Notes under the pieces: model-generated | What the model saw: the letters and a program-made list of their open reading frames with translations, nothing else | What the model was told of the DNA's origin: nothing | Database searches by the model: none | Source: a virus | Length of the DNA stretch: 64,000 bases | Strand: one strand, 5' to 3' | IMG/VR virus record: IMGVR_UViG_3300025887_000011 | Coordinates: 27,808 to 91,807 of that record | Shown here: piece by piece, positions 10,841 to 46,333 of the stretch | How positions within the stretch are numbered: the stretch's first letter is position 1 | How the letters are laid out: each line of letters starts with the position of its first letter | Translations under genes and position numbers: made by a program

Positions 10841-11964
10841 GTCAGTTCTGCTATCGCATTTTTAAAATATTTAATCAAGAAGTCAGAAAGTTTGTCGTCG
10901 TCTTCAATCAATTTAAACAGGTTGTTCTCTCCTTGTATTTTTTCTGGAAACTCAAGTTCGTTTTCAATGAGCAGTTCTTTAAAGTCTTCTGTAGCGGATA
11001 TCCAAGCTCCCCCTTTTTTAAGGAACTCCCAAGCATACATCAAATCAATAATCTCTTTTTCAATCCATATAGAGTTTCCTCCTTTACGGCCATACCTCAA
11101 GGGGTAGGTTATTCTAGAGTTTGTTTTTTCGTTGGGTGACTTTTTAACTGTGACAACAGCAAAGTGGCCAATAATTGGATTTTTTTTCATGTCCATTTTT
11201 TTAATAGAAGAGTTTTGAAGTATAACATCCTTATTAAATCTTGGTTCAAATTCGATAATCCAATTAGCAAAGTGAAGTAGTGCGTTGCCTCCTGTAGCGC
11301 TGGTTTGTCTAATGGGGGCCTTTGTATAAGGATCTAATTTGATATCTGCTCTGACTTGAGAAATAAATATTGCCATGTGACCTCGCTTCGCCAAAGCAAT
11401 AGACATTTTCTTCATAAAAGTACCTGCAATTACGGCCCCACCAGCAATCTTAGAAGAGTCCTCAAACCCCTTATCCATATCATTCTTCGGTATCAGTCCA
11501 TCTACAGAGTCAAGAACAAAACAATACTTTGTGTCGTTTTCATTGTCCGCAACAAGTTGCCTCATTAAATCTACAGCTGTTTCATAAATATTAGATTCAA
11601 ATACAAAACAAGTTCCATCCACCCAGTCTTTTGCGCTGAAAACAAATTCAAGACCAGATCTTTCTCTCATCTCTTTAGACAGTCTTCCTTCTGCTTTTAT
11701 GTAAACACCTTTCGATCTAGGTATTGTAGATAGAAAGTTTTTTATAACCTCTAAAGCCTCTGATGTCTTGCCTCCTTCATTCATACCACAAAATCTATGG
11801 AGTCCAGGCCCAAAGCCGCCTCCAAGCTGAAGGTCGAATTGTAGAGATCCGCTAGATACTTTATAATCTATCTCTTCTTCGAAGTTATAGTGATCATCCT
11901 TGTTTGCCTTAAGGAATCTGTCTAATAAATTGATTGAGTCTTGTTGTTGTTCTTCTTTATTCAT
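10837..11964 (-). CDS. recA: RecA/UvsX-like recombinase
   Basis: SSGSLQFDLQLGGG, GMNEGGKT, VLDSVDGL, ISQVR, TGGNALLHFA. Confidence 0.9.
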   Translation of the reverse strand: MNKEEQQQDSINLLDRFLKANKDDHYNFEEEIDYKVSSGSLQFDLQLGGGFGPGLHRFCGMNEGGKTSEALEVIKNFLSTIPRSKGVYIKAEGRLSKEMRERSGLEFVFSAKDWVDGTCFVFESNIYETAVDLMRQLVADNENDTKYCFVLDSVDGLIPKNDMDKGFEDSSKIAGGAVIAGTFMKKMSIALAKRGHMAIFISQVRADIKLDPYTKAPIRQTSATGGNALLHFANWIIEFEPRFNKDVILQNSSIKKMDMKKNPIIGHFAVVTVKKSPNEKTNSRITYPLRYGRKGGNSIWIEKEIIDLMYAWEFLKKGGAWISATEDFKELLIENELEFPEKIQGENNLFKLIEDDDKLSDFLIKYFKNAIAELT

Positions 11965-12409
11965 CTAAAAATTTCTTTGTTGTTTTTTTTGTTCTCGTTA
12001 TTATTTGATCTTCTCCGACCTTTTCTCCAATATTATACTCTGGATATTTATTGTTGTCAAACTTATAATTAAATGCTCTGAATTTCTCATCTAGTTTACC
12101 CCTAAGCTTAGGGCTTGTCAAGTAAGCTAAGGAATCAAATTTCTTACCGAAATTAACTATATTCATAAACTCAAGAGAATACCTTTCGCACAAAGAATTT
12201 AACATCTTCATTTCCCTTGCGAAGAAAAATCTTTTTTGTTTTTCTGGCACTTCTACTAAACGATAAAGAACGGATCTTTTGTTTATGTTTTTTTCTTTGC
12301 TTTCAATTTTAACCTTATCTTTAGCAAATAAATGCCCACACAAACAAGATACAGACCTTACGCCTGTAAACTCCTTGCATGAAGGGCATTGCTTTTTACC
12401 TCTTGGCAT
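11957..12409 (-). CDS. Hypothetical protein with N-terminal zinc ribbon
   Basis: CPSC-x10-CLCGH. Confidence 0.7.
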   Translation of the reverse strand: MPRGKKQCPSCKEFTGVRSVSCLCGHLFAKDKVKIESKEKNINKRSVLYRLVEVPEKQKRFFFAREMKMLNSLCERYSLEFMNIVNFGKKFDSLAYLTSPKLRGKLDEKFRAFNYKFDNNKYPEYNIGEKVGEDQIITRTKKTTKKFLDE

Positions 12410-12418
12410 AGGTTGACC

Positions 12419-13450
12419 TTATCCGATATTTATATCGGTGTCAACCATCTTTTTAACAAGCCCTTGGAAATTTGTTTTTCTGATCCAGCCAAGCTCTTTT
12501 TCTGCTCTGGAAGGGTCCCCTAATAAAAGCTCTACTTCGGCAGGTCTGTAATATCTAGGATTAATCTCAACAAGTAATTTATCACCGTGGATATATTTCT
12601 CGTCTAGACCTTCACCGACCCATTTGCATTTTTCAGCACCGTAACCAGCATAAGAAAAAGCAGTTTCCACAAAATCTCTGATTGTATGGGTCTCCCCAGA
12701 AGCTAGAACATATTCCTTTGGCTCTTTTTGATTAAGCATCTTCCAAATACCATCTACAAAATCCTCCGCATCAGACCAGTCTCTTTTTGCTTCAAGGTTT
12801 CCAAGCTCAATAGGTTTGAAACTATCTCCGATGCTGTTTTTCAAAAATATCTCAGCCACACCTTTAGTGACTTTTCGGGTAAGAAACTCTTCACCTCTCC
12901 TTGTTCCTTCGTGATTAAATAACCAACCTTGTATTGCATAAAGATTGTAAGAGTCCCTCCAAACTTTAACCAAGTGTCTTGCGGAGGCTTTGGATGCTCC
13001 ATACGGGCTTCTGGGGCGCAATGGATGCGTCTCGTCCTGAGGAGCGGTAACTACGTCGCCGAATTCTTCAGACGAGCCAGCATTGTAGTATCGGCAATCT
13101 GGGCAGTATTTGCGGATAGCCTCAAGCTGGTACAATACAGACATGCAATTTGTATTCATGTGGTTCTCTGGCATATCCCAACTAACACCAACAAATGAAT
13201 TTGCTGCAAAATTAATAAAGTAGTCTGGCTTCTCTTCTTCGATAACACGATTGACATTTGATTGGTCAGTTATGTCAAGGTCGATGAGTCTAAATCTTGG
13301 GTTGTCAGACAAGTGTTTTATGTTTTCGTGATTTTTAACACTAAGTCGGCGCACTCCTGCGATGATATCGATGTCTGTATTCTCCAACAAGTAGTCAGCC
13401 ATAAAGCTTCCGTCTTGTCCTGTTACACCTGTGATAATTACTTTTTTCAT
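12419..13450 (-). CDS. gmd: GDP-mannose 4,6-dehydratase
   Basis: ITGVTGQDGS, AGSSEEFG, SPYGASK, LFNHE..RGEEF.TRK, RDW, RPAEV. Confidence 0.96.
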   Translation of the reverse strand: MKKVIITGVTGQDGSFMADYLLENTDIDIIAGVRRLSVKNHENIKHLSDNPRFRLIDLDITDQSNVNRVIEEEKPDYFINFAANSFVGVSWDMPENHMNTNCMSVLYQLEAIRKYCPDCRYYNAGSSEEFGDVVTAPQDETHPLRPRSPYGASKASARHLVKVWRDSYNLYAIQGWLFNHEGTRRGEEFLTRKVTKGVAEIFLKNSIGDSFKPIELGNLEAKRDWSDAEDFVDGIWKMLNQKEPKEYVLASGETHTIRDFVETAFSYAGYGAEKCKWVGEGLDEKYIHGDKLLVEINPRYYRPAEVELLLGDPSRAEKELGWIRKTNFQGLVKKMVDTDINIG

Positions 13451-13864
13451 TTAAACGTAGTCTGTGCAAACGCCAAAGCATTTGTATTTTTTTTCCTTCC
13501 AGTTAACATCATTATCTACAATAACACATCTTTTTTCAACTCTTTTACCAGGAAAAGTCCAAATAATTTTTTTTGATGTTAGTGTATAGTCGTCGTTTTC
13601 GTGCCAAAAGTAATTACAGCTTGGAGGACAGTTAACCAAAGCCTCTAAATTCTTGCAATGAATCCATAGACCTTTATTGTATAAAAAAGAAAAATCTATC
13701 TTGTATTGAGGGTAATCATGCCCAAGAAAAAAACAGGAATCTTTTTGCCATAAATCTATCTCGCAATCAAAACCAAGCTGTAAACATTTTAAGATTTGAT
13801 CTGGATTGTTCTCTGTATCTTTGTTTACTCCTTTAAGGTTCCCTCTGTGCGATATTATCTTCAT
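13451..13864 (-). CDS. Small glycerophosphodiester phosphodiesterase-like protein
   Basis: ISHRG..EN, CEIDLW, LGHD, WIHCKN, GVCTDY. Confidence 0.75.
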   Translation of the reverse strand: MKIISHRGNLKGVNKDTENNPDQILKCLQLGFDCEIDLWQKDSCFFLGHDYPQYKIDFSFLYNKGLWIHCKNLEALVNCPPSCNYFWHENDDYTLTSKKIIWTFPGKRVEKRCVIVDNDVNWKEKKYKCFGVCTDYV

Positions 13865-13891
13865 GATTTGATATTACGTAGAATAGGCATT

Positions 13892-15256
13892 CTAAATTTT
13901 ATTTTTTAAAAACAAATCGAGATCTTCTGGAGTTCCTAAACCCCACATTTTTTCTATATTAAATGTTTTTATTTTTTTGCCGTCAGCTATAGCTTCATTA
14001 AAAACTGGACAAACATAAAACTCATTATTAAATCTTTTGTTTTCACTAATCATTTGTTCTGCATATTTAACATAATCAGAACCCTTCTTCCAATAATAAA
14101 TCCCAACTGTGGCAATATCTGATATCGGGTTTTTTTCTGCAACCTCTGTAACGAAACCGTTTTCATCAATTTTAGCAAAAGACCACTTAGGATGCGTCGA
14201 CCTAAAGGTCAGTATCCCAGCATCAAGATCTTGTTCTTGCATTTTATACATAAACTCACTTGTGTCCCACTCAGCAAATTGGTCGGAGTTCGCTATGATT
14301 AAAGGGTTGTCATTATTTATAATATCTTTAGCCAACAGCGTAGTACAAGCGGCACCTTCTGTGATTCCTTCGACTTCTACTATGTTCGGTTTTTCTGCAA
14401 TCATGCCAAGCATTGAATCAAGGTTATATTTTTCTCTATGACTTTTTTGAACTATAAAAGAATGCTTGCTTTCAAAGTTTAAGTTGTCCACGACAACTTG
14501 TATCATTGCTTTGCCATCTACCTCAATCAAAGGTTTTGGAAATGTATAGCCAGCTTTTTCAAAACGACTACCTGCACCAGCCATGGGAATAAGAACATTT
14601 AGCTTCCTATCTTGCCACTTTGTATTTGTATTTGTGTTTTTCGTTTCCAAAAGGTTTCTTTCTATTTTTTCTAAAGTCAAGTCTTTCGCATTTTTAACCC
14701 TAACCACTTTAGCTCCAGATCTTTGAGCCGCTAGTAGTCCGTGTGGAGAATCTTCCACTATCAATGTTTCTTCTGGGTTTTTTTCAAGTATTGACATAGC
14801 ATCCCAATACATTTGAGGATGAGGTTTTGAATTTTTTACATCTTCGTTGGAGATTATAAGATCGAAGTACTCTATTACGCCTACTTTAGAAAGCATTAGT
14901 ATAACAGACCTTCTTATAGAGTTGGAGCAACAAGCAATCTTAAAACCTTTAGCTCTTAAACCCTTAAACATTGAGATTAAATTTTGATTAAATTCTAATT
15001 CTTGTATCTTTTTAGATGTTATTCTTTGTTTCCCTTGCCAAATTTGTTTGTGCAGTTTTTCTGGCAATCCTTTTTTCTCTGATAGAATATTTAACTTAGA
15101 TGTTGTTTTGAGACCATCATAAATACTCAAATGTTCTTGTTCAGATATTACAAATTCTGATCCGACTTCAGCCAAAGCCTCGTTCAAGGCATCGTAATGA
15201 ATTTCTTTAGCGTCAACTAAAACACCGTCTAAATCAAATATTATTAATTTTATCAT
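13892..15256 (-). CDS. HAD phosphatase fused to sugar-phosphate nucleotidyltransferase
   Basis: N-half FDLDGVL, SNS, KPHP, VEDS..G; C-half PMAGAGSRF..PKPLI, GAA.T, ANSDQ, EK.PIS, GTPEDL. Confidence 0.9.
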   Translation of the reverse strand: MIKLIIFDLDGVLVDAKEIHYDALNEALAEVGSEFVISEQEHLSIYDGLKTTSKLNILSEKKGLPEKLHKQIWQGKQRITSKKIQELEFNQNLISMFKGLRAKGFKIACCSNSIRRSVILMLSKVGVIEYFDLIISNEDVKNSKPHPQMYWDAMSILEKNPEETLIVEDSPHGLLAAQRSGAKVVRVKNAKDLTLEKIERNLLETKNTNTNTKWQDRKLNVLIPMAGAGSRFEKAGYTFPKPLIEVDGKAMIQVVVDNLNFESKHSFIVQKSHREKYNLDSMLGMIAEKPNIVEVEGITEGAACTTLLAKDIINNDNPLIIANSDQFAEWDTSEFMYKMQEQDLDAGILTFRSTHPKWSFAKIDENGFVTEVAEKNPISDIATVGIYYWKKGSDYVKYAEQMISENKRFNNEFYVCPVFNEAIADGKKIKTFNIEKMWGLGTPEDLDLFLKNKI

Positions 15257-15954
15257 AAGTCTCTAAAAAGTTTGTAGTAGTGGTTTTGTAGAGGCGTTTT
15301 TTTAATATTAAACAAATCAGAACAATGTAAATTAAAACCAAGGAAACATTCTGGATTAACAGCACAACCATTTTCTACCATAGATTCTATACGGACAAAC
15401 GTTTGACTATAAACATCCATATCTTTACTGTTTGAAAAACTAAAAAGATCGTTTACTGCGTATTCAGTATGAACAAATTGATCATTAATATACATGTTCT
15501 CTTGGTTGTAATCATCAATTTTAAAATCTTTTGTGAAAAACAAGTCGGTTCTTAACCTTACGGACCAATCAAAATCAACATTTCTTGCTTGAGAAAATAA
15601 AATCTTCAAGTTATTAGCCATCATAATTGAATAAAACATAGAAAATGTGTTTTCAATAGGATGCGGGAACCTTGGATCTGGGATTAAATCGCTTTTAAAA
15701 GATATAGGCTTCTCCAAAAGAAAAGAATCTGGATTAACATCTAAAATGTCAGAAACGTTTTTAGATTTATAAAAACCCCTGTCTGTTCTTTCTCCAAAAT
15801 GACTTTTACCTTCTAAAGATTTATCAGACCAAGAGTGAAAAAATATATAAAAATTATATTCTGGGTTTGCCTCTACAATATGTCTTACATGTGATTCAAA
15901 GCATTTTTTAAAGTCTCTAATTTGACCAGAATAACAAAGTGCTACGTTTTTCAT
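15253..15954 (-). CDS. Putative glycosyltransferase
   Basis: VALCYSGQIR, HSW, SMFYS, RLRTD, NDLF, NPE pattern typical of glycan-locus proteins. Confidence 0.6.
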   Translation of the reverse strand: MKNVALCYSGQIRDFKKCFESHVRHIVEANPEYNFYIFFHSWSDKSLEGKSHFGERTDRGFYKSKNVSDILDVNPDSFLLEKPISFKSDLIPDPRFPHPIENTFSMFYSIMMANNLKILFSQARNVDFDWSVRLRTDLFFTKDFKIDDYNQENMYINDQFVHTEYAVNDLFSFSNSKDMDVYSQTFVRIESMVENGCAVNPECFLGFNLHCSDLFNIKKTPLQNHYYKLFRDL

Positions 15955-16895
15955 TTTATTTTTTCAATTAAGTTTTCAAATTTTCTTGCTATGTTCATCC
16001 AATCAAAAGACTCTGCATAGGAAACTATACTATCTCTTTGGTTTAAAGAAATATGTTTGTTTGTTTCTATTTTATCATTAATATAAATTATGTCATTTAT
16101 CCTATCATCGGGAATAACAGTTATAAAATCCTTTGATGTATCTAGATTTTGAACACAAGCTTCTGTAACTACAAGCCCAAGACCAGCAGACATAGCCTCT
16201 AAACATACTAATGGCTGAAGTTCAGAAGACGAAAGAAGTATCAAGTTAGCATAATGAGTCAAATCTTCTTTAACTTTTTTAGATTCCCATGCACCTAAGT
16301 AATTAGGGTCATCTTTATTGAAATCACTATCAAAACAAGATCCTACATACTTAACCATCGATGTTTGGCTTTGCAGTTGAGCTTGCCTTTTTCTTGAATC
16401 TATCTTACCTAAGCATATACTATACTCTGAGTTCTCTACGTATTGTTTTTTAACCCTGTTAAATTTAGAAAAACAAACTCCGTTTGGCAATATGTTTATT
16501 TTACTAGGAGATATTCCAACTTTTAAAAGTAGGTTTTCTTCGAAGGTTGTTAGGCAAAAAAAGTTACAGTCATAAAAAAACTCCCTTATCAACTTTTCGT
16601 GAAAAGGCAAGCTGTTTATAAAACTACCGTCATGAGTTGTAATAATTTTTTTACACTTGAGGTGAGGCATCATTTCCCAATGCTTACCGTAGTGCAGGTG
16701 AACTATATCTGGATTTATTTCAAGAACTTTTTGATGAGTAAGGTTAGTCGATTTTTCATTTATAAAATAAACATCATGACCAAGCTTTCTTAATGATTCA
16801 TACTGGTTCCAAAGCACAGTCTCTAAAGCGCCCCAACCATCTGGAGGTATTTCTATTTCACCTGGAGCTATAAAACATATTTTCATTTTGAACAC
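15951..16895 (-). CDS. GT-B (GT4-like) glycosyltransferase
   Basis: PP.GWGALE, PDIVHLH, LPNGV, GKIDSRK, ELQPLVCLEA (E-x7-E). Confidence 0.88.
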   Translation of the reverse strand: MFKMKICFIAPGEIEIPPDGWGALETVLWNQYESLRKLGHDVYFINEKSTNLTHQKVLEINPDIVHLHYGKHWEMMPHLKCKKIITTHDGSFINSLPFHEKLIREFFYDCNFFCLTTFEENLLLKVGISPSKINILPNGVCFSKFNRVKKQYVENSEYSICLGKIDSRKRQAQLQSQTSMVKYVGSCFDSDFNKDDPNYLGAWESKKVKEDLTHYANLILLSSSELQPLVCLEAMSAGLGLVVTEACVQNLDTSKDFITVIPDDRINDIIYINDKIETNKHISLNQRDSIVSYAESFDWMNIARKFENLIEKIK

Positions 16896-17479
16896 AGTTT
16901 ATTGTAAATTTCTATATCTTTTTCGTAAAGAAACTTATAATCTTCGAATTTAACTTCTGAGATTTTATTGCCAACAGATTCGTTTTGATGATAAGCTTCA
17001 ACCTTTACGTCTAAGTATTCAGATAAGTTATCAAAAAGTTGATCGTCACACAAGAAGTCTTTATCGGTTATTTTTTTTTCTCCATCAAAAATAAATTCGT
17101 TTTGAGGACATCCATGTATAAAGTTACAACTTTGAATGTAATACTTGTTTCTTATTGAATTAAGGTAAGAATAATAAAAAAACAAATGTTCTGGGTTTCC
17201 TAAGTGCTTGGTAGCATAGGAAAGAGAAGAATAAAACCTTTCTTCTGGGTTTCTAATCGTAGAAAAAACTTTATAACCGTTATCTATAGCTGACTGTATA
17301 ACATGAAATTTAGAGTAGTGCATTGGCAGCATATGAGTTTTATCTATAGTCCCATCTTCGGTTGCCATATGAGTATCTATAAGATCTGGATCTATCTTCT
17401 TAAAAGATTTGTATATAGAAGAACCCCAATTCTTAGGGATATGTATATATAGGAATTTTAACTTGTGACTAACCAGCAT
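16883..17479 (-). CDS. Sulfotransferase (Sulfotransfer_2-like)
   Basis: 5'-PAPS motif YIHIPKNWGSS, 3'-PAPS motif IRNPEERFYS, C-terminal YEKD. Confidence 0.82.
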   Translation of the reverse strand: MLVSHKLKFLYIHIPKNWGSSIYKSFKKIDPDLIDTHMATEDGTIDKTHMLPMHYSKFHVIQSAIDNGYKVFSTIRNPEERFYSSLSYATKHLGNPEHLFFYYSYLNSIRNKYYIQSCNFIHGCPQNEFIFDGEKKITDKDFLCDDQLFDNLSEYLDVKVEAYHQNESVGNKISEVKFEDYKFLYEKDIEIYNKLCSK

Positions 17480-18527
17480 TGTATATTTCGTTGTATTTTA
17501 GTAAAGCTTCTTTAGTGTAACTCATTTGGAAACCTCTGTCAAGTATAATAGATGCAAAATATTGTTGTTTTTTTATTAATGCTTCTACGTCTTCTTTTTT
17601 CTTAAACGCCTTAAAATCTTCAAGAAAGGATTCTTCTTCGAATGTAGGAAGAATTCCAAGATTGTTTAAAAAAGAATGATACCAAATATAATCGTCTTCA
17701 TTCTCTTTTGGTTTCACCTGTATCAATAAAGAATTAGAAGCGAGTTGCCACATCATCCTATCTCCAGAAACTGTGTTTCCGTTTATATAGGCTATGTATT
17801 TATATTTTAATTGATCTTCTGAAGAAGTATGCTCTGAATATATTTCACTTTTATTTATATTGTGGCTTTTTAACATATCATCAGAGTAATGAGCAAAAAA
17901 GGTTATTTTAGAATCTATATATTCAGAGTCTTTATTGTTAATGCAGAACGTTAATCTTTGATTTAAAAGATCTTCTCTTTGTTTGCTTGTGTCTGAACCT
18001 CTAAATATTATGCCATCTTTTTTTTCTGAAAAAGGAATGTCATCATTTAGGTAAGTTCTTATTTTGTAACCAAAGGTCAAGACCCCGCATACTAATGGGT
18101 CTGGCATTCCAATATGATTACTTGACTTATGCCTACCGAATGTAGAGAACTTTGTATATTTATCTGTGATTGGTAGGCCGTCATTTAAACAAGCTACAAA
18201 CCTGCAATTTAATTTAATTTTATAAGTGTCTATGACTGATTTAATCAAGCCGTAAAAACTTTGAAGTTTCCATTCGTTATTTTTATCTGCAATAGCATCT
18301 ATAACTTTAATAGGTGACAATTCTCCATTTTGATCTGTATCTGGATCTTCAGTATTAATTTCAAAAACGAATTCAAGAAGGCTTGCTCTTTCATGTTTTT
18401 CTAGAAAACTTTTGTTAAATTTTATGGTATTATTTTTAAATTCGCTTTCTATGCAGTAATCAACTACATCTTCACTTGTGTATAAAGTAGACATCTTTTC
18501 TATTATTTTGGTATTTTTTAAATTCAC
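17469..18527 (-). CDS. GT90/CAP10-like glycosyltransferase
   Basis: IPFSEKK..IIFRGS, R, QLKYKYIAYING, QLASNSL, WY. Confidence 0.75.
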   Translation of the reverse strand: MNLKNTKIIEKMSTLYTSEDVVDYCIESEFKNNTIKFNKSFLEKHERASLLEFVFEINTEDPDTDQNGELSPIKVIDAIADKNNEWKLQSFYGLIKSVIDTYKIKLNCRFVACLNDGLPITDKYTKFSTFGRHKSSNHIGMPDPLVCGVLTFGYKIRTYLNDDIPFSEKKDGIIFRGSDTSKQREDLLNQRLTFCINNKDSEYIDSKITFFAHYSDDMLKSHNINKSEIYSEHTSSEDQLKYKYIAYINGNTVSGDRMMWQLASNSLLIQVKPKENEDDYIWYHSFLNNLGILPTFEEESFLEDFKAFKKKEDVEALIKKQQYFASIILDRGFQMSYTKEALLKYNEIYNAG

Positions 18528-19218
18528 TACATACTGGATCGCCCATTAAGAATTTGTTTTCAGAAAGTATAGATCTTAATAAATATTGAAGTATCCACAT
18601 GTCAGAATTAAAATCGGTGTTACCCATCTTTATTCTGGTTTCACAAAATTTTTGATAAAACAATAGCATATCTTCATATCGACCTCCTACAACGCCCATA
18701 TTTATAAGCTCCCAAGAATTATTATTAATAATGAATTTAACACTGTCATCCCAATTAAATTGATTGTGAACATTCAAGTATGGGAACTCTTGTAATTGGA
18801 TGCTGTCTTTACAAGCAAAATAAGAATAATCTGGGAAAGATTCAATAAGTCCAGAAGGATCTTTTACAACGACAACATCAGAAGCATCAGTATGAAATAC
18901 TGTGTCGAATTTATTTTCTTCAAGATAGTTTCTAAAACAAAAGAATCTATAGTCGTTATTTGAATATTCAAAGTCACCTACCTTCTTGAATTTTATTTTA
19001 TCTGTCTCGTATTTTGATACAAAATCATCAGATAATCCATCATAAAAAAGAACAGCATTTAGATTTTTATCTAAAATAGAATTATACCATTTTTCAATAT
19101 ATGGAAAATAATCCTTTTGTATATGGTTGTTTTCCATCCTGCCGACAACATGCTTGTCATCGACACTGTTTGGATGTATTTTTTTTGTGAAATATGAACT
19201 AAGTATTACACTCGACAT
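18472..19218 (-). CDS. Putative GT-A glycosyltransferase
   Basis: RF..F..YL, TDASDV, INMGVVGG, SDM..LQ, FIHK. Confidence 0.65.
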   Translation of the reverse strand: MSSVILSSYFTKKIHPNSVDDKHVVGRMENNHIQKDYFPYIEKWYNSILDKNLNAVLFYDGLSDDFVSKYETDKIKFKKVGDFEYSNNDYRFFCFRNYLEENKFDTVFHTDASDVVVVKDPSGLIESFPDYSYFACKDSIQLQEFPYLNVHNQFNWDDSVKFIINNNSWELINMGVVGGRYEDMLLFYQKFCETRIKMGNTDFNSDMWILQYLLRSILSENKFLMGDPVCSEFKKYQNNRKDVYFIHK

Positions 19219-19251
19219 GAGGTATTATACCTCAAATGCTTTCGTCTTCAA
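19218..19251 (-). promoter_or_regulatory. Sigma70-type promoter TTGAAG-N16-TATAAT with the -10 inside a 17-bp palindrome
   Basis: -35 at 19251-19246, -10 at 19229-19224; TGAGGTAT-T-ATACCTCA at 19218-19234. Confidence 0.6.
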
Positions 19252-20107
19252 CTATATAATCTACATATTTTAGATCTGAATTGATTTCAAGTATTTCGTC
19301 CATATTGACAACGGAAGACTCATCCCAACCCCACTGACTAAGTATTTCCTCATCATCCCATTCTACAGCCTCAGAAGATACCGATTTGTTTACTGGTTTT
19401 TTACTCCACATCTTACAAGACCAGTAACGGGGTGTCGTTTTATCCTTGGCTGTATCACACTTATGTCTAGCTCTAAAGCTACGACGGCGATCTGGATCAT
19501 CTCTTTTGATTTCCATATTTGGGTCACCAAACTTAACTACGATAACGTTGCCCGTTTTTGGGCTTTTTACGTAAACTCCAAATTTTTTGCTTTCACCTTT
19601 TAGCCGAAACGGCTTATTAAGTGTCTTTTTTTCAGCTTCTGAATAGAAGAGCTCTTCGCATTCAGCATCTTGATCCCATTTTTCCAAACCAGCCTTAACC
19701 AAATCTAGGTTTGCTAAGTTTAAATCTAAATCGGAGAAAGAAAAGAACGAGCAGATATTTTCTCCTTCTTCTCGGTAACGATTAGATATAATGTCTTTTT
19801 CAGATTCAATATATTGTTCGTCAACATTTTCTCCTCTGTTGCACTTTAAAAACATATTTACCCTGGCCATAGCCCATTGGCTTTTGGTTTTGCCAACCCT
19901 ATGAGTAGAATTATAAGAATGAGAACCTCTTAAATAAACTCTTTTTAACTGATCTTCAGATACTTTATTTTCATAACGGTCGTTATGTTTTTGAGTTTTT
20001 TCAGATATAACGGAAGAGATTATTTCAGAAACATCGAATGAACTAAGGTAATTAACCTTGTAATCTTTGTTTAATTCTTTTATTTGCTTAGAAAAATCGT
20101 ATTCCAT
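19232..20107 (-). CDS. Conserved viral hypothetical protein with two small basic domains, probably late
   Basis: VYLRG...HR....QWAMARVN.F and KFGDPNM.IKRDDP.RRRSFRARHKC...RYWSC motifs recalled from large dsDNA viruses; GTGTA motif upstream. Confidence 0.6.
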   Translation of the reverse strand: MEYDFSKQIKELNKDYKVNYLSSFDVSEIISSVISEKTQKHNDRYENKVSEDQLKRVYLRGSHSYNSTHRVGKTKSQWAMARVNMFLKCNRGENVDEQYIESEKDIISNRYREEGENICSFFSFSDLDLNLANLDLVKAGLEKWDQDAECEELFYSEAEKKTLNKPFRLKGESKKFGVYVKSPKTGNVIVVKFGDPNMEIKRDDPDRRRSFRARHKCDTAKDKTTPRYWSCKMWSKKPVNKSVSSEAVEWDDEEILSQWGWDESSVVNMDEILEINSDLKYVDYIVEDESI

Positions 20108-20116
20108 TGTGATAAA

Positions 20117-20127
20117 TTATTACACTA
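20117..20127 (-). promoter_or_regulatory. GTGTA late-promoter motif
   Basis: TAGTGTAATAA; GTGTA ends 13 nt before ATG 20107. Confidence 0.6.
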
Positions 20128-23207: not shown

Positions 23208-23235
23208 TTGACAACTTTAATAAAAAGAATATAAT
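23208..23235 (+). promoter_or_regulatory. Consensus sigma70 promoter TTGACA-N16-TATAAT; probably leaderless
   Basis: -35 at 23208-23213, -10 at 23230-23235, ATG at 23243 after 7 nt. Confidence 0.85.
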
Positions 23236-24811: not shown

Positions 24812-25870
24812 ATGAAAATTCTATTGGAGGCTCCATTAAACAGCTTAAGCTTTGGAAATGTAACACTTAACTTTATTAAAGAGTTACACAAAAAGGGTCA
24901 TGATTTTGGTATCTGGCCAGTCAATAACGATATTGATTTGTCAGCTTATGATATAACACCCGATCTAAAATTAAGAATCGAAGAAGCTATAAATGAGCGT
25001 TACAGCTTTTTATCTTCTGATGTTCCATCTTTAAAGATTTGGCATATTAATGGAGCCGAAAATAGAAAAAATGAAAAGCAATACCTTTATACTTTTTATG
25101 AATGTAGTGAACCTACAGAAGAAGAAAAGGTTACTGTAGAAGCCCAAACACAAACTATTTTTAGTTCTTCTTATTCAGCTAATCAATTTAACAAGCCATT
25201 TGTACCACTTGGTTTTGATTCTGATTTTAACGTAACTAATAAGAATTATCTTAATAACGTTACTCATTTTGGTTTAATGGGTAAGCTAGAAAAAAGAAAA
25301 CATACAGTTAAAATAATCAACACTTGGGCAAAAAAATACGGAAACAACCCCAAATACCAATTGTCTTGCTTGATCAATAATGCTTTCTTGGAAAAAGAAG
25401 AAATGTTAAATACTATTAATTTAGCATTAGAAGGAGAAAGATATAACAATATAAACTTTATACCTTTTCTTAAAACCAATAAAGAGGTTAACGAGTTTTT
25501 AAATGCTATAGACATCGATTTGACTGGACTTTCTGGAGGAGAAGGTTGGAATCTACCAGCTTTTAATTCAACATGTTTAGGCAAGTGGAGCATTGTCCTT
25601 AACTCAACATCTCATAAAGATTGGGCTAATTCACAAAATTCAATCCTTGTAGAACCTGAAGGTAGGTTTGATTGTTATGATAATAAATTTTTCCAAAAAG
25701 GCTCAAAATTTAATCAGGGACAATTCTTTGACTTTAATGTAGAAGAAGTTATTTCAGCTATGGAATTAGCAGAAAGCAAAGTAGGAAATATTAATACAGA
25801 AGGTTTAAAATTAGCTGAGAAATTCACATACTCTAAGACGGTTGATAGTATTTTGTCACATATTTCTTAG
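24812..25870 (+). CDS. GT-B (GT4-like) glycosyltransferase
   Basis: SFG, FYE, VPLGFD, GKLEKRK, GEGWNLP. Confidence 0.8.
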   Translation: MKILLEAPLNSLSFGNVTLNFIKELHKKGHDFGIWPVNNDIDLSAYDITPDLKLRIEEAINERYSFLSSDVPSLKIWHINGAENRKNEKQYLYTFYECSEPTEEEKVTVEAQTQTIFSSSYSANQFNKPFVPLGFDSDFNVTNKNYLNNVTHFGLMGKLEKRKHTVKIINTWAKKYGNNPKYQLSCLINNAFLEKEEMLNTINLALEGERYNNINFIPFLKTNKEVNEFLNAIDIDLTGLSGGEGWNLPAFNSTCLGKWSIVLNSTSHKDWANSQNSILVEPEGRFDCYDNKFFQKGSKFNQGQFFDFNVEEVISAMELAESKVGNINTEGLKLAEKFTYSKTVDSILSHIS

Positions 25871-26467: not shown

Positions 26468-29400
26468 TTAATTTCCATCTGTAGAAGGATAAAGCCTCCA
26501 AGGTAATACTGTCAAACCCTGGAATGTTGGACCGTAATTTCCTGTGTATTCATCTGTTACGTATAAATTGCCAGTAGGGCCATTTAAAAAAGCATTAGCT
26601 CCTATGTTGGGAGAATCAATATCAAGAAAAACATTCCTTATTTTTGAGCAGTTTTCATAAGCAGAAGCACCTATTGACATGTTTAATTCAAAATAATTAG
26701 CAAAAATAATGTCTCCAGTTATATTAGAACAACCTTTAAATGCATTATCTCCTATTTTAGATAAAGATGGGATATCTTCATAACTAAGTATTTGAGATAT
26801 ACCGCTACAGTTTCTGAACGCTGCGTTATCTATTACTTCTAAACTAGGACCAAGAGCTAAAAAAGGTCCAACTTGAGAACAACCATCAAAAGCTTGATTT
26901 GCTATTCCAGTGGTGCCAAAACCAAAGGCTAATGATCCAGATAAATTATCTAAACCAGCAAAAGCTCTGGTGCCAATAGAAATCAGACCTTCAGAAAGCA
27001 AACGTAATTGTCCTGAAAATCCAGAACATTCATAAAAAGATTCTTTTCCTATTCTTTGGATGTTTGGTGGTAAAGTTAGTCCTCCATTAAAACCAGTACA
27101 TCTTGAAAAACTATAATCATCTAAATATAGTAGGGTTCCTGGTAGTTCTAGCTTTCCAGTAAAATTATAATCATAGAATCCAGAAACACCAACCCCAGTA
27201 ACTCCTTCTTTAAAAGATAGAGTGCTTTGGCTGTCAAAGTTATATGTTTTATAGAATTCAAAAGAACTTTTTTGCACCGAAGACGAAGGACAGGAAGCTA
27301 ATACAAGGCCAGTAAAATAAGATTGGTCAAATACATTTATCCCGACATCTGTAGATGGGCTCATTTGCAAAAACCCACTAAAAGGACTATCTTGAAAAGC
27401 TGAATTTTCGATCTTTTGGACAGAACAACCTATTTTAGCGCTTCCCGATAATCCAGTACAACCTTTAAACGCAGCAAAACCAATGCCAGTGACTGAATTA
27501 GGAATGTTAATAGATCCTGTTAAGTTATATCCAGAAAAAGCATATTCATGCAAACCCGAAGCATTATTATTAATTATTAAGTTTAGATTAATATCTTTAA
27601 ACTCTTCATAGAATCCAGACTTAATCTCTGTTAATGATGAAGCTGTAAATAATCTTCCACCTTCAATATTTATTCCTGAAAAATTTGTTCCATAAAAAAC
27701 ATTTCTTCCTATTGATGTTCCGTCTTCTATATTCAATAACCCTGAAAGGCCAGAACAACCAGAAAATGCGAAGTTTCCTATTTTATTTAAATTGTCGCTA
27801 AATGTCAATCCTCCAGTTAAAGGCCAATTATCAAAAGATCTTGAATTTATGTTTTTAACGCTTTCAGGGAAACTAACAGAACTAGAGTTGCTATTTGATA
27901 AATAGTAGTCAAATTCATTGTTGCTTATGTTTTTAACCCCTTGAGACACTTTAAGGTTTGTAAAATCACATCCAGTAAAAGCTAATGGATGTATCAAACC
28001 GCTTCCAGATTGAGGCTCTAAACCTCCCTCCCATATTGCTGGGAAAGTTGTTAAAGTTTTTGCGTTTGAACAATTTCTAAAAGCTCCGCTTTCTATAGCG
28101 GAATCTCCAGAACCATAAATGAATTGAGCTCTTGATAAAGATATTTCTGAGAAACCACTACAATCATCAAATGCTAAACTTCTTATGCCAGTTAAGGATG
28201 TAGGTAAATCTAATTTACCAGTAAATTGCATTCCTGCAAAAGATCTTTTGTTAATTTGTTCGACCTTTGAAGGAGCTTTGAATGTTAAAATACTTTGCTC
28301 TGCATAATTAGAAGTTGTTTTTGTGTGTATATCTAACCCGTACCAACCGTATCCGAAATAACTAGTATTTGCATTCCGACCTGTAACAGAGTAAATAACA
28401 TTTGGAACTTCTAAGTTTTTAAAATCGTTGTTTTTAAAAGAGTCAGGACTATTAATAAATCTACTGGACTGACCATCCCTGCTTAAATATTGATATGAAG
28501 GCGGAACAGTTAATTTCCCATCAAAAGCATTTAAATCAAAAGCTAGATTAGAAATGGTTGAAATCCCTGTAGAGTTTAATTCTAGATCTCCAGTTAAATT
28601 ACAAAATCGAAACCCCTGACTCCCTACTGACTGCAGATTTTTGCTAAAAAATATTTTTTTCTGTTGTAAACTAGCGCCTCCAAATACACTTGTCGAAGCA
28701 GTCTTTAATTTAGGAAAGTGAAAATCATTTTGAATATCGTAACCTTTAATAAAACCACCTCTGAATGCAAGAGATCCAAGATTTTCCAGGTTGTTATCGA
28801 CAGGAAAAGTAAATTTCCCTTTTGGTGATTTATCTTGGTTATAATCCATTCCAAAAGCACTACTCCCAATGCTGCGTACACTCGCTGGTAGATAAAAGTC
28901 TCCAGTCATATAAGATAGATAGAACCTCGAGGTTATACTTGAGGTCGCGTAAAAAGCCAGATCCTCTATAGTTACAAGACCTTCATTAAGTTTTAAAGTA
29001 TGAATTCCTGTTGTCGGGCTGGCATTACTTGTAGATCTGAAAGACTGGTTAAAAGCATAAGGTTCTATACCAGTTATATTGGATGGTATTTCTAAAACTC
29101 CAGTTATGTAGTTATTAGCAAATCCATAAGTTGGGATTATTTGTAAACCAGTTCCAATTTCTAGGCTTCTAATATTATTATCTCTAAACCCACTTCCCCC
29201 CATAAATACTAATGAATCTGGTATTTTAAGTTCTCCAGTTATAGCCCATCTATAACATGATGCATTAGCTACATTTTTAACGCCCTCTTCTATATTTACA
29301 TATGGGAACGGCTTAGTAGTTTGTGATAGGCGTCTTCTAAACCATTGATAGTCATTTGTTCCATCAAAAGTTAACGTACAAGATTTTACTGTTAAACCAG

Positions 29401-45302: not shown

Positions 45303-45770
45303 ATGGCAGGGTTTTTATCTTCATCTCAAATAACAGAAATCGAAAGTCTGTATAACAAATTGCACGAAACATTCGCGCAACAAATAACGGTTTATAAGAA
45401 TGGAACAAGGGTTTTAATAGCCCACGACCCTAAGTATAACGCTGTTTATGGTAGGGACAATAGGGGAAAAAGAGATAGCGTTAAATACGAAAAGCTATCT
45501 AAATCTTTTGACGCTAGGATTTATTATGTAAAACTAGAAGAAGAAAAATTTAGTTACGAAAGTCAAAAAAGCCAAATAAAAGTCGACATGATTAAAGGCT
45601 CAGTCAAGATTTTTGTAAAAAAAGAAGGTTTCGATTTTCTTCAAGAAGCAAGAAGAGTCGAGCTAGACGGAAGAAAGTTTAGCATCCATACAGATGGAAT
45701 GCCGTTTGGTTTAACTGGTAACCTTTTTTATACTTTTTACTTAACTCCTTTAGAAGAATCCGAAGAATAA
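45303..45770 (+). CDS. Head closure/stopper-like neck protein
   Basis: Size, beta-rich pattern (ARI.Y, V.LDG..F.I), first gene of the neck cluster. Confidence 0.5.
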   Translation: MAGFLSSSQITEIESLYNKLHETFAQQITVYKNGTRVLIAHDPKYNAVYGRDNRGKRDSVKYEKLSKSFDARIYYVKLEEEKFSYESQKSQIKVDMIKGSVKIFVKKEGFDFLQEARRVELDGRKFSIHTDGMPFGLTGNLFYTFYLTPLEESEE

Positions 45771-46333
45771 TGGTCAAAATTCCAAAGTCAATTCAAAAAG
45801 ATATAGCTAAAAGATCTCTTAAAGCTAATAAAAAAGAGGTTAAGAAACCCTTTGATAAAAAATTCAATGAAATAAAAGAACAGATGATAGAAGAATTTCT
45901 GTCTAATCCTGTTACAGCTGAAATACTATCTGGGCCAACATCTAGCAACACAAGCGGAACTCTTGGGGGAGAAGCGAATCTTTTTTCTTTTATTGGGTTC
46001 TCCTCTGGGGATAAACCTATAGAGCCAATAGTGCAAATACTAAGATCAGCAACATACAAAGAAACAAAAGATGGTTATAAGATAACTATTCCTTCTGCTG
46101 AAGATATATTCGCAGTTACACCAATGCCCTGGGCTACAGGCAGAAGTTGGGCTAAAGGGGTAGAAACTGGTATTTCTGGGCTAGGTTATCTTTTAAACAA
46201 AAAAACTACAAAGAGTAGATCTGGAGCAGCGATACAAACAAGCAAAAAAGTAAGAAGCGGAGGTTTTAAAAACACACTTTATATATCTTCCTTAATAAAA
46301 AAATATAAAAAAAGATTTAAGAAAATATTATGA
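45770..46333 (+). CDS. Basic neck/tail-completion protein (HK97 gp10-like position)
   Basis: Very basic; W...VETG motif; lies between stopper and terminator candidates. Confidence 0.45.
   Translation: MVKIPKSIQKDIAKRSLKANKKEVKKPFDKKFNEIKEQMIEEFLSNPVTAEILSGPTSSNTSGTLGGEANLFSFIGFSSGDKPIEPIVQILRSATYKETKDGYKITIPSAEDIFAVTPMPWATGRSWAKGVETGISGLGYLLNKKTTKSRSGAAIQTSKKVRSGGFKNTLYISSLIKKYKKRFKKIL

Follow-up and report, generated by a model that had tools for sequence, protein, structure and literature searches.

A phage gene island for sugar activation, glycosyl transfer and sulfation, and its possible role in virion glycosylation

Analysis of a 64,000-nt stretch of DNA (the window) supports the view that an uncultured marine tailed phage carries a self-contained soluble kit for sugar activation, glycosyl transfer and sulfation. 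With a probability of about 0.4, these genes may form a cytoplasmic pathway whose product, a short, acidic, sulfated oligosaccharide, is attached in the cytoplasm, the likeliest acceptor being structural proteins of the phage itself. The acceptor would then be tail fibres, tail or head proteins, modified before or during assembly. The source record is 91.8 kb long and about 74% complete, and the phage size is about 92-127 kb.

Organization of the glycan island

The features considered here are the following (window coordinates).

11957..12409, minus strand: 150-aa basic Cys-rich zinc-ribbon-like protein (net charge +15), marking the island's conserved right border ahead of UvsX
12419..13450, minus strand: Gmd, GDP-mannose 4,6-dehydratase, core gene no. 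2 of the island (PF16363, 349.7 bits)
13451..13864, minus strand: 137-aa virus-specific protein (PHROG 34507, 2.5e-25, function unknown)
13892..15256, minus strand: 454-aa fusion of a beta-phosphoglucomutase-type HAD and a sugar-1-phosphate nucleotidyltransferase (HAD_2, 1.7e-34; NTP_transferase, 2.3e-12)
15253..15954, minus strand: 233-aa DUF7796-related protein (PF25072, only 9e-4; PHROG 13607, 6e-24)
15951..16895, minus strand: 314-aa GT4 (GT-B) glycosyltransferase (PF13439, 34.5 bits, above cut-off; PHROG 33732, 2.5e-72)
16883..17479, minus strand: 198-aa probable PAPS-dependent sulfotransferase, Sulfotransfer_2-like (PF03567, 4e-4; PHROG 3347, 3e-6)
17469..18527, minus strand: GT90 (CAP10/POGLUT-like) GT-B glycosyltransferase, island core gene (family profile and fold model)
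18472..19218, minus strand: 248-aa protein, tentative GT-A-type glycosyltransferase (PHROG 1579 'glycosyltransferase', 3e-6)
19232..20107, minus strand: DUF5824 protein of 291 aa, marking the island's conserved left border (PF19141, 26.5 bits)
20118..20127, minus strand: promoter-like GTGTAATA (GTGTA[AT]), lying 18 nt upstream of the island's leading gene (DUF5824)
24812..25870, plus strand: 352-aa GT-B (GT4-like) glycosyltransferase adjoining SSB (PHROG 2170, 1e-14)

As the preliminary description had proposed, eight contiguous ORFs of the same orientation occupy positions 12419-19218 of the minus strand, with overlaps or gaps of at most 28 nt. All eight cassette proteins are soluble, and a search for TM-like segments found none in any of them, in line with the earlier claim. 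In comparison with a sister strain, every cassette gene has a dN/dS of 0.04-0.15, which indicates coding genes maintained under purifying selection. The island is located in the DNA-replication and nucleotide-metabolism block (RNR, dNMP kinase, SSB, UvsX, helicase, primase and DnaE), not in the structural block, and this setting counts against a virion target.

Sugar-activation genes

The Gmd and HAD-nucleotidyltransferase assignments of the preliminary description were both borne out. Gmd matches GDP-mannose dehydratases of the PDB at 1e-81 (2z1m) and TIGR01472 at 329 bits, under the strict 415 cut-off of that model. The PDB matches of the HAD-nucleotidyltransferase fusion are 4evw and beta-phosphoglucomutases. 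Going by these families, the fusion would convert a host hexose phosphate to an NDP-hexose, in the simplest case Man-6-P to Man-1-P to GDP-Man, from which Gmd would make GDP-4-keto-6-deoxymannose. Neither a 4-reductase nor an aminotransferase was found in the island of this genome, so completion of the keto sugar would fall to Gmd itself or to a host enzyme. In relatives, DegT aminotransferases or additional SDRs are present instead.

The 137-aa protein had been described as GDPD-like. This label was rejected, as the GDPD score is only at chance level. The protein belongs to a virus-only family travelling with the HAD-nucleotidyltransferase gene: all its atlas neighbours are viral and lack a Pfam family, and it adjoins the fusion homologue in B3, S-CAM9, L029 and L038.

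Glycosyltransferases

Family identity and fold of the GT90 protein, as judged from profiles and a structure model, are solid. The protein alone scores 23.3 bits in Pfam (cut-off 24), while 23 of 50 homologues match PF05686, the best at 3e-35. The family profile matches POGLUT2 (7e-21), POGLUT1 and Rumi in the range 7e-21 to 1e-10, and the AF2 model (pLDDT 93.6) has chains of the same three proteins as top Foldseek matches, with a TM of 0.65. Met12 of the ORF, conserved in nearly all aligned family members, is probably the true start. This GT90 family is nearly phage-only, with 56 viral loci and two weak bacterial ones; homologues are present in 51 related viral loci. Solved GT90 members are protein O-glycosyltransferases without exception, which, with the nearly phage-only distribution, counts for the virion reading; glycan-acting enzymes such as Cryptococcus Cxt1 also occur within GT90, which counts against it. 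The GT90-fold enzyme would prime the pathway by putting the first sugar on a conserved acceptor. Going by its constant association with Gmd, its donor may be a GDP-6-deoxyhexose and not UDP-Glc or UDP-Xyl.

The GT4 assignment was upheld by Pfam. The 248-aa protein, formerly 'GT-A-like', is retained as tentative: it has the PHROG match and a D111-x-S113-D114 motif that is invariant in 28 homologues, but Pfam and PDB searches gave no match. It belongs to a large, metagenome-only family (247 clusters) and is the most diverged cassette gene, with 83% identity to the sister strain. The 233-aa protein had been called 'GT-like', a weak label; it is a relative of DUF7796, with PF25072 present in several of 27 homologues, but its family profile found no match in the PDB.

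Beyond the island, the same genome encodes two more glycosyltransferases and one GNAT. The glycosyltransferase noticed earlier at 24812 proved to belong to a GT-B/GT4-like phage family. Its atlas neighbours are phage clusters with Glycos_transf_1, it is retained across the phage family (54-69% identity in relatives), and a paralogue type of 618 aa occurs at G000:C1:23941-25797. The GT4 enzyme, the 248-aa protein and the two outlying GT-B enzymes would lengthen the chain.

Sulfotransferases

The island 198-aa protein is, from its motifs, probably a PAPS sulfotransferase. It contains a 5'-PSB-like PKNWGSS and a 3'-PB-like RNPEERFYSS, and the corresponding PAPS-type motifs PKxxGSS and RNPxxRxxS are invariant across eight homologues. 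Its dN/dS is 0.11. Relatives with 32-33% identity (LR756508.1 and the record of L092) score 42-57 bits, above the Pfam cut-off. The sulfotransferase call of the preliminary description is thus kept as probable, the protein's own Sulfotransfer_2 score being under the threshold (20.9 bits, cut-off 22). This score and a fold model with a pLDDT of only 39 count against the virion reading.

A second, clear-cut sulfotransferase (PF13469, 59 bits) lies in the same genome between the LRR fibre genes and a minor-tail gene. Its place inside the tail-fibre block counts for the virion reading. In relatives, the tail-fibre site has up to three more Sulfotransfer_2 genes and also homologues of replication-module island genes, and a more distant relative keeps a sulfotransferase in the replication-module island, which also counts for the virion reading. 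Both sulfotransferases would add sulfate to the chain with host PAPS as the donor.

Conservation of the island and the host-envelope alternative

The island occupies the same slot, between the DUF5824 gene and UvsX, in more than 50 related IMG/VR contigs. DUF5824 homologues lie left of it in at least 25 related contigs, and the 150-aa border protein, for which a family search gave no match, has homologues at the same place in 46 related loci. GT90 and Gmd form a conserved core at this fixed slot in more than 40 relatives, with Gmd found at 43 of 51 related loci, mostly adjoining the GT90 gene; the other content is swappable. The GT90-fold enzyme is the sole transferase kept along with Gmd family-wide. 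Island content is hypervariable between strains, with mosaic dS. Sister strains have as an extra gene a polysaccharide pyruvyltransferase (PF04230, 39.8 bits), and they would also attach a pyruvate ketal.

Among 533 island ORFs called in 51 GT90-anchored loci (L018-L068), no polytopic membrane protein was found. The commonest Pfam families are SDRs, DegT aminotransferases, methyltransferases, GT2, GNAT and radical SAM, not Wzx, Wzy or priming transferases. The reported absence of flippase and polymerase genes was confirmed here and in the islands of about 50 relatives, and priming transferase genes are missing from all of these too; the roughly 50 islands are also devoid of ligase and ABC exporter genes. 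Soluble proteins, no membrane or export genes, a fixed GT90 and Gmd core and purifying selection count for the virion reading.

A serious rival, ranked close behind the virion-protein reading and itself only tentative, is that the soluble phage enzymes modify host undecaprenyl-linked LPS, capsule or EPS intermediates at the cytoplasmic membrane face and that host machinery exports the sulfated glycan. This rival is compatible with proteins free of TM segments, since bacterial O-antigen and capsule glycosyltransferases are also soluble or peripheral. PF04230 in sister strains, together with the sulfo- and methyltransferases and sugar aminotransferases of relatives, is a hallmark of surface-polysaccharide loci, and hypervariable content with mosaic dS is the pattern of surface-antigen loci. 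Homologous modules lie within the cyanomyovirus 'LPS/cell-wall' AMG islands, of which the standard reading is host-surface modification (PMC9602691). The sulfotransferase next to the tail fibres is compatible with a receptor-modifying moron, and this is a classic site of morons that alter host receptors. The pyruvyl-, sulfo- and methyl-transfer typical of bacterial surface polysaccharides, the cyanomyovirus reading and the moron site all count against a virion target.

However, with about 50 islands lacking export genes, the host's Wzx/Wzy or ABC transporter would have to accept a chain that four or five foreign glycosyltransferases had made. The family-wide GT90 and Gmd core suggests one conserved acceptor, not strain-specific host glycans, and the phage GT90 family is nearly missing from bacterial genomes. 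The phage genes surveyed included neither an integrase nor a lysogeny module, which makes long-term seroconversion unlikely.

Promoter-like motif and acceptor sites

The GTGTA motif at 20125, pointed out in the preliminary description, is real. Ahead of the 52 gene starts, within 45 nt, GTGTA[AT] has 8 occurrences against 0.8 expected, an enrichment of about 10-fold (P about 3e-6), and it is retained upstream of the DUF5824 homologue in the divergent relative L034. As also stated there, no terminator-like site was found between the motif and the cassette. Other copies precede structural operons (43189, 56120, 62419, 62762 and 50705). A motif common to the island and structural operons counts for the virion reading and against host-envelope remodelling.

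The Ser/Thr-Gly support given earlier for O-glycosylated structural proteins was lost. The SG/TG 'sequon' is limited to a 1944-aa LRR protein, where it equals the LRR repeat consensus, and it was rejected as an O-glycan sequon. The POGLUT-type acceptor motif (EGF-type C-x-S-x-[PA]-C) is absent from the phage proteome, which counts against the virion reading, and Ser/Thr-rich C-terminal tails of the mycobacteriophage-acceptor type were not found in the phage. The sulfated virion glycan first proposed is favoured by the soluble kit, the lack of export and priming genes, the shared motif and the second sulfotransferase, but not by SG/TG or by the replication-module location.

DNA and other cytoplasmic acceptors

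The position of the island within the replication and nucleotide-metabolism module, and of one GT-B gene beside SSB, would fit glycosyltransferases that attach a sugar chain to a hydroxylated base of phage DNA (T-even, RB69 or TET-linked style), shielding the genome from host nucleases. Known DNA-glycosylating enzymes are soluble relatives of LPS enzymes, often beside replication genes (10.1101/2023.12.21.572611), and the sugar-nucleotide supply may be phage-encoded (PMC13326640), which also counts for this possibility. However, no ThyA-type hydroxymethylase/hydroxylase, ThyX, TET/JBP dioxygenase or C5-methyltransferase was found in the 91.8-kb record. The hydroxyl-bearing base is therefore without visible source and DNA glycosylation very unlikely, although this absence is not final in a record only about 74% complete. 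The second sulfotransferase in the tail-fibre block also speaks against a DNA target, and we know of no case of GT90, GDP-6-deoxyhexoses, sulfation or pyruvylation in DNA modification.

Improbable, though less so than DNA, is another cytoplasmic acceptor: a soluble sulfated glycoside or oligosaccharide (metabolite or signal), or host cytoplasmic proteins glycosylated for takeover. The pathway is soluble and self-contained, the 248-, 233- and 137-aa proteins have no assignable acceptor type, and read-through from the RNR genes would permit early expression. However, we know of no precedent in phages for a multi-glycosyltransferase sulfating host-takeover system, strain-level hypervariability is seen more typically in exposed structures than in a metabolite inside the cell, and the tail-fibre-adjacent sulfotransferases would be left unexplained.

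Comparison with known systems

Precedents for the virion reading come from chloroviruses and Megavirinae, which use soluble enzymes of their own, a Gmd among them, to glycosylate virion proteins. The phage island resembles the systems for the PBCV-1 capsid and Megavirinae fibril glycans in its soluble glycosyltransferases without signal peptides, its own sugar-nucleotide enzymes including GDP-mannose 4,6-dehydratase, its strain- or clade-specific gene content and, in the phage relatives, tailoring methyltransferases. GT90/CAP10-fold proteins occur in giant viruses too. In contrast, the present island belongs to a tailed phage, lies in a replication module and is only a putative virion-glycosylation system. 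To our knowledge, sulfotransferases and pyruvyltransferase (the latter here in sister strains) are not known from giant-virus systems.

The eukaryotic GT90 enzymes POGLUT1/Rumi and POGLUT2 share family profile and GT-B fold with the phage enzyme, but identity is 13-17% and the latter lacks both a signal peptide and an ER retention signal. Some mycobacteriophages (Che8-type) O-glycosylate capsid and tail proteins with their own cytoplasmic glycosyltransferases, the only phage precedent for a virion-glycosylation mechanism known to us. They differ in having 2-4 glycosyltransferases, no sugar-nucleotide synthesis or sulfation, and Ser/Thr-rich C-terminal tails as acceptors. DNA hypermodification clusters (T4 a/b-gt, RB69/DLP3 arabinosyl-5hoC, MT-TET-GT) likewise have soluble glycosyltransferases beside replication genes and sometimes their own sugar nucleotide, but the defining ThyA homologue or TET/5mYOX is missing from the phage record; we know of no sulfation in such clusters. 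A mycobacteriophage glycosyltransferase pair is mentioned in PMC11256854.

Cyanomyovirus clusters (P-SSM2, S-SCSM1, S-CAM9, B3) are also marine and combine Gmd with several soluble glycosyltransferases. Their cassettes have homologues of the HAD-nucleotidyltransferase fusion (56-58% identity), the 137-aa protein (44-47%), the GT4 enzyme (40%, in B3 and S-CAM9) and the DUF7796-related protein (25-33%). Unlike the fixed replication-module slot described here, these genes lie in AMG/hypervariable islands adjoining hli and talC. As for the phage island, the function of the 'LPS/cell-wall' clusters is predicted only (PMC9602691). Across 50,697 GenBank phage records, GT90 or island-sulfotransferase homologues were limited to one weak match, in an uncultured 484-kb phage.

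If the host envelope were the target, the outcome would be a superinfection block, less progeny sticking to debris, or changed grazing or aggregation. If the acceptor is the virion, the swappable part of the island would diversify the glycan among strains.

Genomic setting of the cassette

The phage record is linear, 91.8 kb long and an estimated 74% complete; the window (bases 27808-91807) has a G+C content of about 35%. Its DnaE polymerase is only about 28-32% identical to those of the nearest cultured phages, which points to an uncultured lineage, and the related contigs come from marine metagenomes, TARA included; surface samples of the North Sea and of TARA contain this clade. As the preliminary description stated, there are eight contiguous genes at 12419-19218. 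They lie on the minus strand with overlaps or gaps of at most 28 nt, and a TM check found no membrane segment in any of the eight products. The 27.8 kb to the left of the window were covered by a Pfam scan, after which features were located by family searches. The glycan-related sites of the genome are as follows (G000:C1 denotes coordinates of the full record).

12419-19218 (-), eight-gene cassette: Gmd, 137-aa protein, HAD-nucleotidyltransferase fusion, 233-aa protein, GT4, probable sulfotransferase, GT90, 248-aa protein
24812-25870 (+), 352-aa GT-B glycosyltransferase
G000:C1:1382-2179 (-), locus L074, second sulfotransferase, 265 aa
G000:C1:21486-25797 (-), locus L075, 618-aa glycosyltransferase (PHROG 2170, as for the enzyme at 24812) and a GNAT, just left of a ClpC-like gene

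Counting the last site, the glycan-related genes of this genome number at least 12 and are spread over four places. The cassette lies outside the structural module. It is preceded by the genes for RNR beta, RNR alpha and a DUF5824 protein (19232-20107), and followed by those for a basic zinc-ribbon-like protein, UvsX/RecA, an HNH nuclease, DnaB, primase, a PD-(D/E)XK nuclease and a split DnaE. A divergent operon encodes a dNMP kinase, SSB and the extra glycosyltransferase at 24812. The latter is a GT-B enzyme of a large phage-only family; it gave no significant match in sequence and profile searches of PDB and no tblastn match in GenBank phages.

The GT90 enzyme

Taken alone, the GT90 protein scores 23.3 bits against Pfam PF05686, whose cut-off is 24. 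An exhaustive search recovered 280 relatives, and 23 of the 50 that were aligned match PF05686 (Glyco_transf_90), the best at 3e-35. The family profile matched POGLUT2 (7e-21), POGLUT1 (1e-12) and Rumi (1e-10) in PDB. The AF2 model (pLDDT 93.6, pTM 0.90) has a GT-B fold that superposes on solved GT90 structures, the top four Foldseek PDB matches being 9w47, 5l0t, 5l0r and 5f84 (E from 2e-12 to 5e-9, TM 0.65-0.67). Profile matches and fold search, headed by the same chains, thus place the protein in GT90, the family named in the preliminary description. In a viral structure library the nearest folds were those of giant-virus CAP10/GT90 proteins and of domains called 'LPS-modifying' in irido- and ascoviruses. 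No homologue was found by tblastn in 50,697 GenBank phage records, and the literature search returned no paper tying GT90 to phages. A search for GT90-bearing loci with an 11-sequence alignment recovered 56 viral loci versus only two weak bacterial ones.

Other enzymes of the cassette

Gmd matches PF16363 over its full length (349.7 bits, positions 1-332 of 332) as well as solved Gmd structures (PDB 2z1m, 1e-81), which upholds its label. Its exact substrate is a prediction, since the TIGR01472 score of 329 bits is below the equivalog cut-off of 415 bits. The HAD-nucleotidyltransferase proved to be a beta-phosphoglucomutase-type HAD fused to a sugar-1-phosphate nucleotidyltransferase, and the GT4 enzyme matches PF13439 and PHROG 33732 (2.5e-72), so that both carry the right names.

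The labels of the remaining small proteins fared less well. For the 248-aa product (18472-19218), described as GT-A-like, a PHROG match, itself weak, and a DxSD motif that is invariant are all that speaks for the label; its family has no Pfam counterpart, no PDB relative and no tblastn match in GenBank phages. It is a very abundant and well-conserved metagenome-only family (52-84% identity) with 247 clusters, on contigs that reach 216 kb. The 233-aa product, described as GT-like, is related to DUF7796; sequence and profile searches of PDB with this family gave no significant match, and hhalign detected no relation between the 233-aa and 248-aa families. The GDPD assignment of the 137-aa protein was rejected, as the protein is too short and the sole pointer was a chance-level Atlas lead.

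A probable sulfotransferase in the cassette and a clearer one in the tail-fibre block

The sulfotransferase of the cassette falls just short of the Sulfotransfer_2 threshold (PF03567 cut-off 22 bits; score 20.9 bits, E 4e-4) and matches PHROG 3347 at 3e-6. Its sequence reads HIPKNWGSS at residues 13-21 and TIRNPEERFYSS at residues 74-85. The motif PKxG[ST][ST] is the 5'-phosphosulfate-binding loop of PAPS-dependent sulfotransferases and RxPxxRxxS their 3'-phosphate-binding motif; both are present in this protein, and their forms PKxxGSS and RNPxxRxxS are kept in all full-length homologues (eight). Relatives with 32-33% identity clear the PF03567 cut-off, at 56.6 bits in LR756508.1 and 42.1 bits in the record of locus L092. 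No significant PDB match was obtained in sequence and profile searches, and the AF2 model, built from an 8-sequence alignment of close homologues, was unusable (pLDDT 39). Judged on motifs and relatives, the gene probably encodes a PAPS-type sulfotransferase; the original label is supported to that extent but not proven.

The second sulfotransferase gene of the genome is clearer. It scores 59 bits against Sulfotransfer_3 (cut-off 27), belongs to PHROG 27463 and carries distinct GLPRxxST and VPVRD motifs. Its PDB sequence and profile search gave no significant match, and hhalign found no relation between its family and that of the cassette enzyme. It lies within the tail-fibre block, with LRR proteins on one side and, on the other, a 114-aa protein and a 273-aa minor-tail/cement-domain protein. 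In 17 related contigs it is 88-100% conserved, while the adjoining LRR fibres are only 40-70% identical. Several relatives have an extra variable segment after this gene. The segment contains a paralogue of it, between one and three Sulfotransfer_2 genes that clear the Pfam cut-off, and homologues of genes from the replication-module island. In a more distant relative, whose replication proteins are 61-87% identical, the replication-module island is small and consists of the GT-A-like gene, Gmd, a Sulfotransfer_2 gene and one gene without a label. These arrangements show sulfation to be a trait of the clade, with gene exchange between the two islands. In an uncultured 484-kb phage (LR756508.1, 312282-322007, locus L073), a neighbouring pair of Sulfotransfer_2 genes, scoring 57 and 40 bits, lies about 8 kb from Gmd and an SDR gene, the SDR being 50% identical to an island gene of the present family. 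Neither APS kinase nor PAPS_reduct/CysD-like genes were found in the phage, which implies that the sulfate donor is left to the host. The literature search retrieved no study of a phage-encoded sulfotransferase.

A conserved slot with variable content

About 50 viral loci belong to a single phage family with a common replication-module synteny, in which the glycan island sits between the DUF5824 gene and UvsX. Island content was obtained by clustering the 533 ORFs called in 51 GT90-anchored loci. The core consists of GT90 (51 loci) and Gmd (43 loci), which are usually adjacent. The variable genes around it include DegT sugar aminotransferases, which are present in 18 loci and imply sugars of the GDP-perosamine type, besides additional SDRs, numerous methyltransferases, GT2 and CAP59-like transferases, GNATs, radical SAM enzymes and UDP-galactopyranose mutase. 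Most relatives also encode ThyX (PF02511, 1.6e-30; e.g. L055:4958-5590) and a conserved 143-aa protein with two hydrophobic segments (e.g. L049:9568-9999) between the GT90 and zinc-ribbon genes; both are absent from the present phage.

Near-identical phages were found in three IMG/VR records and two metagenome contigs. Their replication proteins are 98-100% identical to those of this phage, whereas the cassette proteins are only 83-96% identical. Between window positions 8677 and 22793, dS relative to sister strain L009 is 0.01-0.04 from DnaB to Gmd, rises to 0.3-0.7 in the stretch that begins with the 137-aa gene and ends with the GT-A-like gene, and is 0.17 for DUF5824 and 0.30 for RNR. Because of this jump the island is regarded as a recombination mosaic, and a breakpoint is indicated at the junction of Gmd and the 137-aa gene. 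Every cassette gene has a dN/dS of 0.04-0.15 (0.11 for the sulfotransferase) and is thus under purifying selection. In sister strains with 98-100% identical flanks, two extra genes are inserted between the HAD-nucleotidyltransferase and 137-aa genes (L003:10448-12096): a polysaccharide pyruvyl transferase (PF04230, 39.8 bits, 6.8e-10) and a gene for a 234-aa protein whose relatives are found in cyanophage cassettes. Gene order is unchanged in more distant short contigs (64-80% identity).

Transcription signals

The GTGTA motif that had been proposed upstream of the cassette is real. When the 45 nt ahead of each of 52 gene starts were scanned, GTGTA[AT] was found eight times versus 0.8 expected (P ~3e-6), an approximately 10-fold enrichment; it follows a T-rich tract and lies 14-34 nt upstream of the eight start codons.

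GTGTA[AT] sites in the window: 20125, 25884 (+), 43217, 45289 (+), 50739, 56134, 62433, 62782

The site at 20125 precedes the DUF5824 gene that heads the island. Others precede the gene that follows the terminase, the operon encoding a 3019-aa protein together with the Dit-like and 1944-aa LRR tail proteins, and several further unassigned genes in the structural half of the window. From its enrichment and the operons that it precedes, GTGTA[AT] is a plausible late-class promoter element, the late timing being our inference, and it is probably a phage promoter element common to the glycan island and the structural operons. In line with the earlier observation, nothing resembling a terminator lies between RNR, the motif and the cassette; generic sigma-70 and terminator scans performed no better than shuffles or background. 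Two perfect TTGACA-N16/17-TATAAT sites were noted, one at 12032-12060 (-) within the gene for the 150-aa protein that precedes UvsX, and a second at 23208-23235 (+) ahead of the dNMP kinase-SSB-glycosyltransferase operon.

Proposed pathway and its acceptor

The virus itself encodes soluble glycosyltransferases together with sugar-nucleotide enzymes, as virus-autonomous virion glycosylation of the chlorovirus or mycobacteriophage type would require. In the proposed pathway, the HAD-nucleotidyltransferase fusion and Gmd would supply an NDP-hexose and GDP-4-keto-6-deoxymannose. As the island has no reductase or aminotransferase, either Gmd itself or an enzyme of the host would have to complete the keto sugar. 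GT90, the constant partner of Gmd, may prime a conserved acceptor, the remaining transferases would lengthen the chain, and the sulfotransferases would draw on host PAPS.

As acceptor we favour the virion proteins, with a probability of about 0.4. In favour of this reading are a design that is soluble and self-contained in all 50 islands, the protein acceptors of the GT90 family, the combination of a conserved primer enzyme with variable tailoring enzymes, the promoter motif common to structural operons, and the placement of sulfotransferases within the fibre block. Against it, a motif scan detected no POGLUT1-type acceptor site in the phage proteins, and the island is located among replication genes. 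The Ser/Thr-Gly dipeptides that had been enlisted as support did not hold up: the SG/TG excess is found in the LRR protein at 26468-32302 alone (83 versus 38 expected, z = 9), where it is the repeat consensus, and it was discarded as independent evidence. Outside that protein only the 187-aa product of 45770-46333 has an [ST]G excess, a modest one (8 versus 2.6).

The sugars could instead remodel the host envelope. Pyruvyl-, sulfo- and methyl-transfer chemistry would suit such a role, as would the moron-like position beside fibres and the homology to cyanophage 'LPS' clusters, which are usually read as modifying the host surface (PMC9602691). The cassettes of cyanomyoviruses B3 and S-CAM9, located in AMG islands adjoining hli and talC, share 4-5 homologous genes with the present one. 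However, priming and export genes are wholly absent. The 533 island ORFs encode no polytopic membrane protein, only 75-144-aa proteins with one or two segments, and no priming, flippase, polymerase or exporter family is among the 25 commonest of the 62 Pfam families in the islands; neither the cassette nor the 51 loci therefore has the make-up of a Wzx/Wzy- or ABC-dependent surface-polysaccharide locus. The GT90 family is also nearly absent from bacteria. Envelope remodelling is a serious candidate, somewhat less likely than the virion acceptor.

DNA glycosylation appears very unlikely. It would fit the replication-gene context and recent work on phage DNA glycans, but its defining enzyme, one that makes a hydroxyl-bearing base, is lacking: ThyA, ThyX, TET/JBP and C5-methyltransferase (PF00303, PF02511, PF12851, PF00145) had no match at E <=0.1 across the 91.8-kb, ~74% complete record. 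The ThyX found beside GT90 in relatives was set aside as a base modifier, being an ordinary PF02511 match absent from this phage. Another cytoplasmic acceptor is rather unlikely.

Returning to the virion acceptor, its fullest form would be that, in this family of uncultured marine siphophages, a conserved GT90-type protein O-glycosyltransferase and Gmd prime a glycan on tail-fibre/virion proteins, and a swappable set of enzymes (among them 2-4 sulfotransferases and a pyruvyltransferase) finishes a strain-specific polyanionic glycan. Such a particle would be the first phage virion known to carry sulfated glycoprotein, and its glycan type would serve as a variable 'serotype'. We put this complete scheme forward as a speculative proposal, possible but on present evidence doubtful.

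Significance

Multi-enzyme phage glycan pathways, for example the cyanophage 'LPS' clusters, are known from genome annotation, and to our knowledge almost none has a known product or acceptor. Since Gmd-bearing multi-glycosyltransferase 'LPS-like' islands have already been described in marine phages, the cassette is of a known kind; new are the GT90 enzyme, the sulfotransferases, the fixed slot with a two-gene core across a phage family, and the link to the tail-fibre block. With eight genes the system is compact and could be reconstituted; its Gmd and GT90 core is family-wide, natural variants gain or lose tailoring genes, and a second sulfotransferase lies in the fibre block. If the product is on virions, there would be marine phages with polyanionic sugar coats, which could change how they adsorb, aggregate and stick to marine gels and how fast they decay or are grazed. 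If it is on the host, lytic marine phages would re-dress their hosts with sulfated glycans during infection. Either outcome would answer what the abundant 'LPS-like' genes of phages are for.
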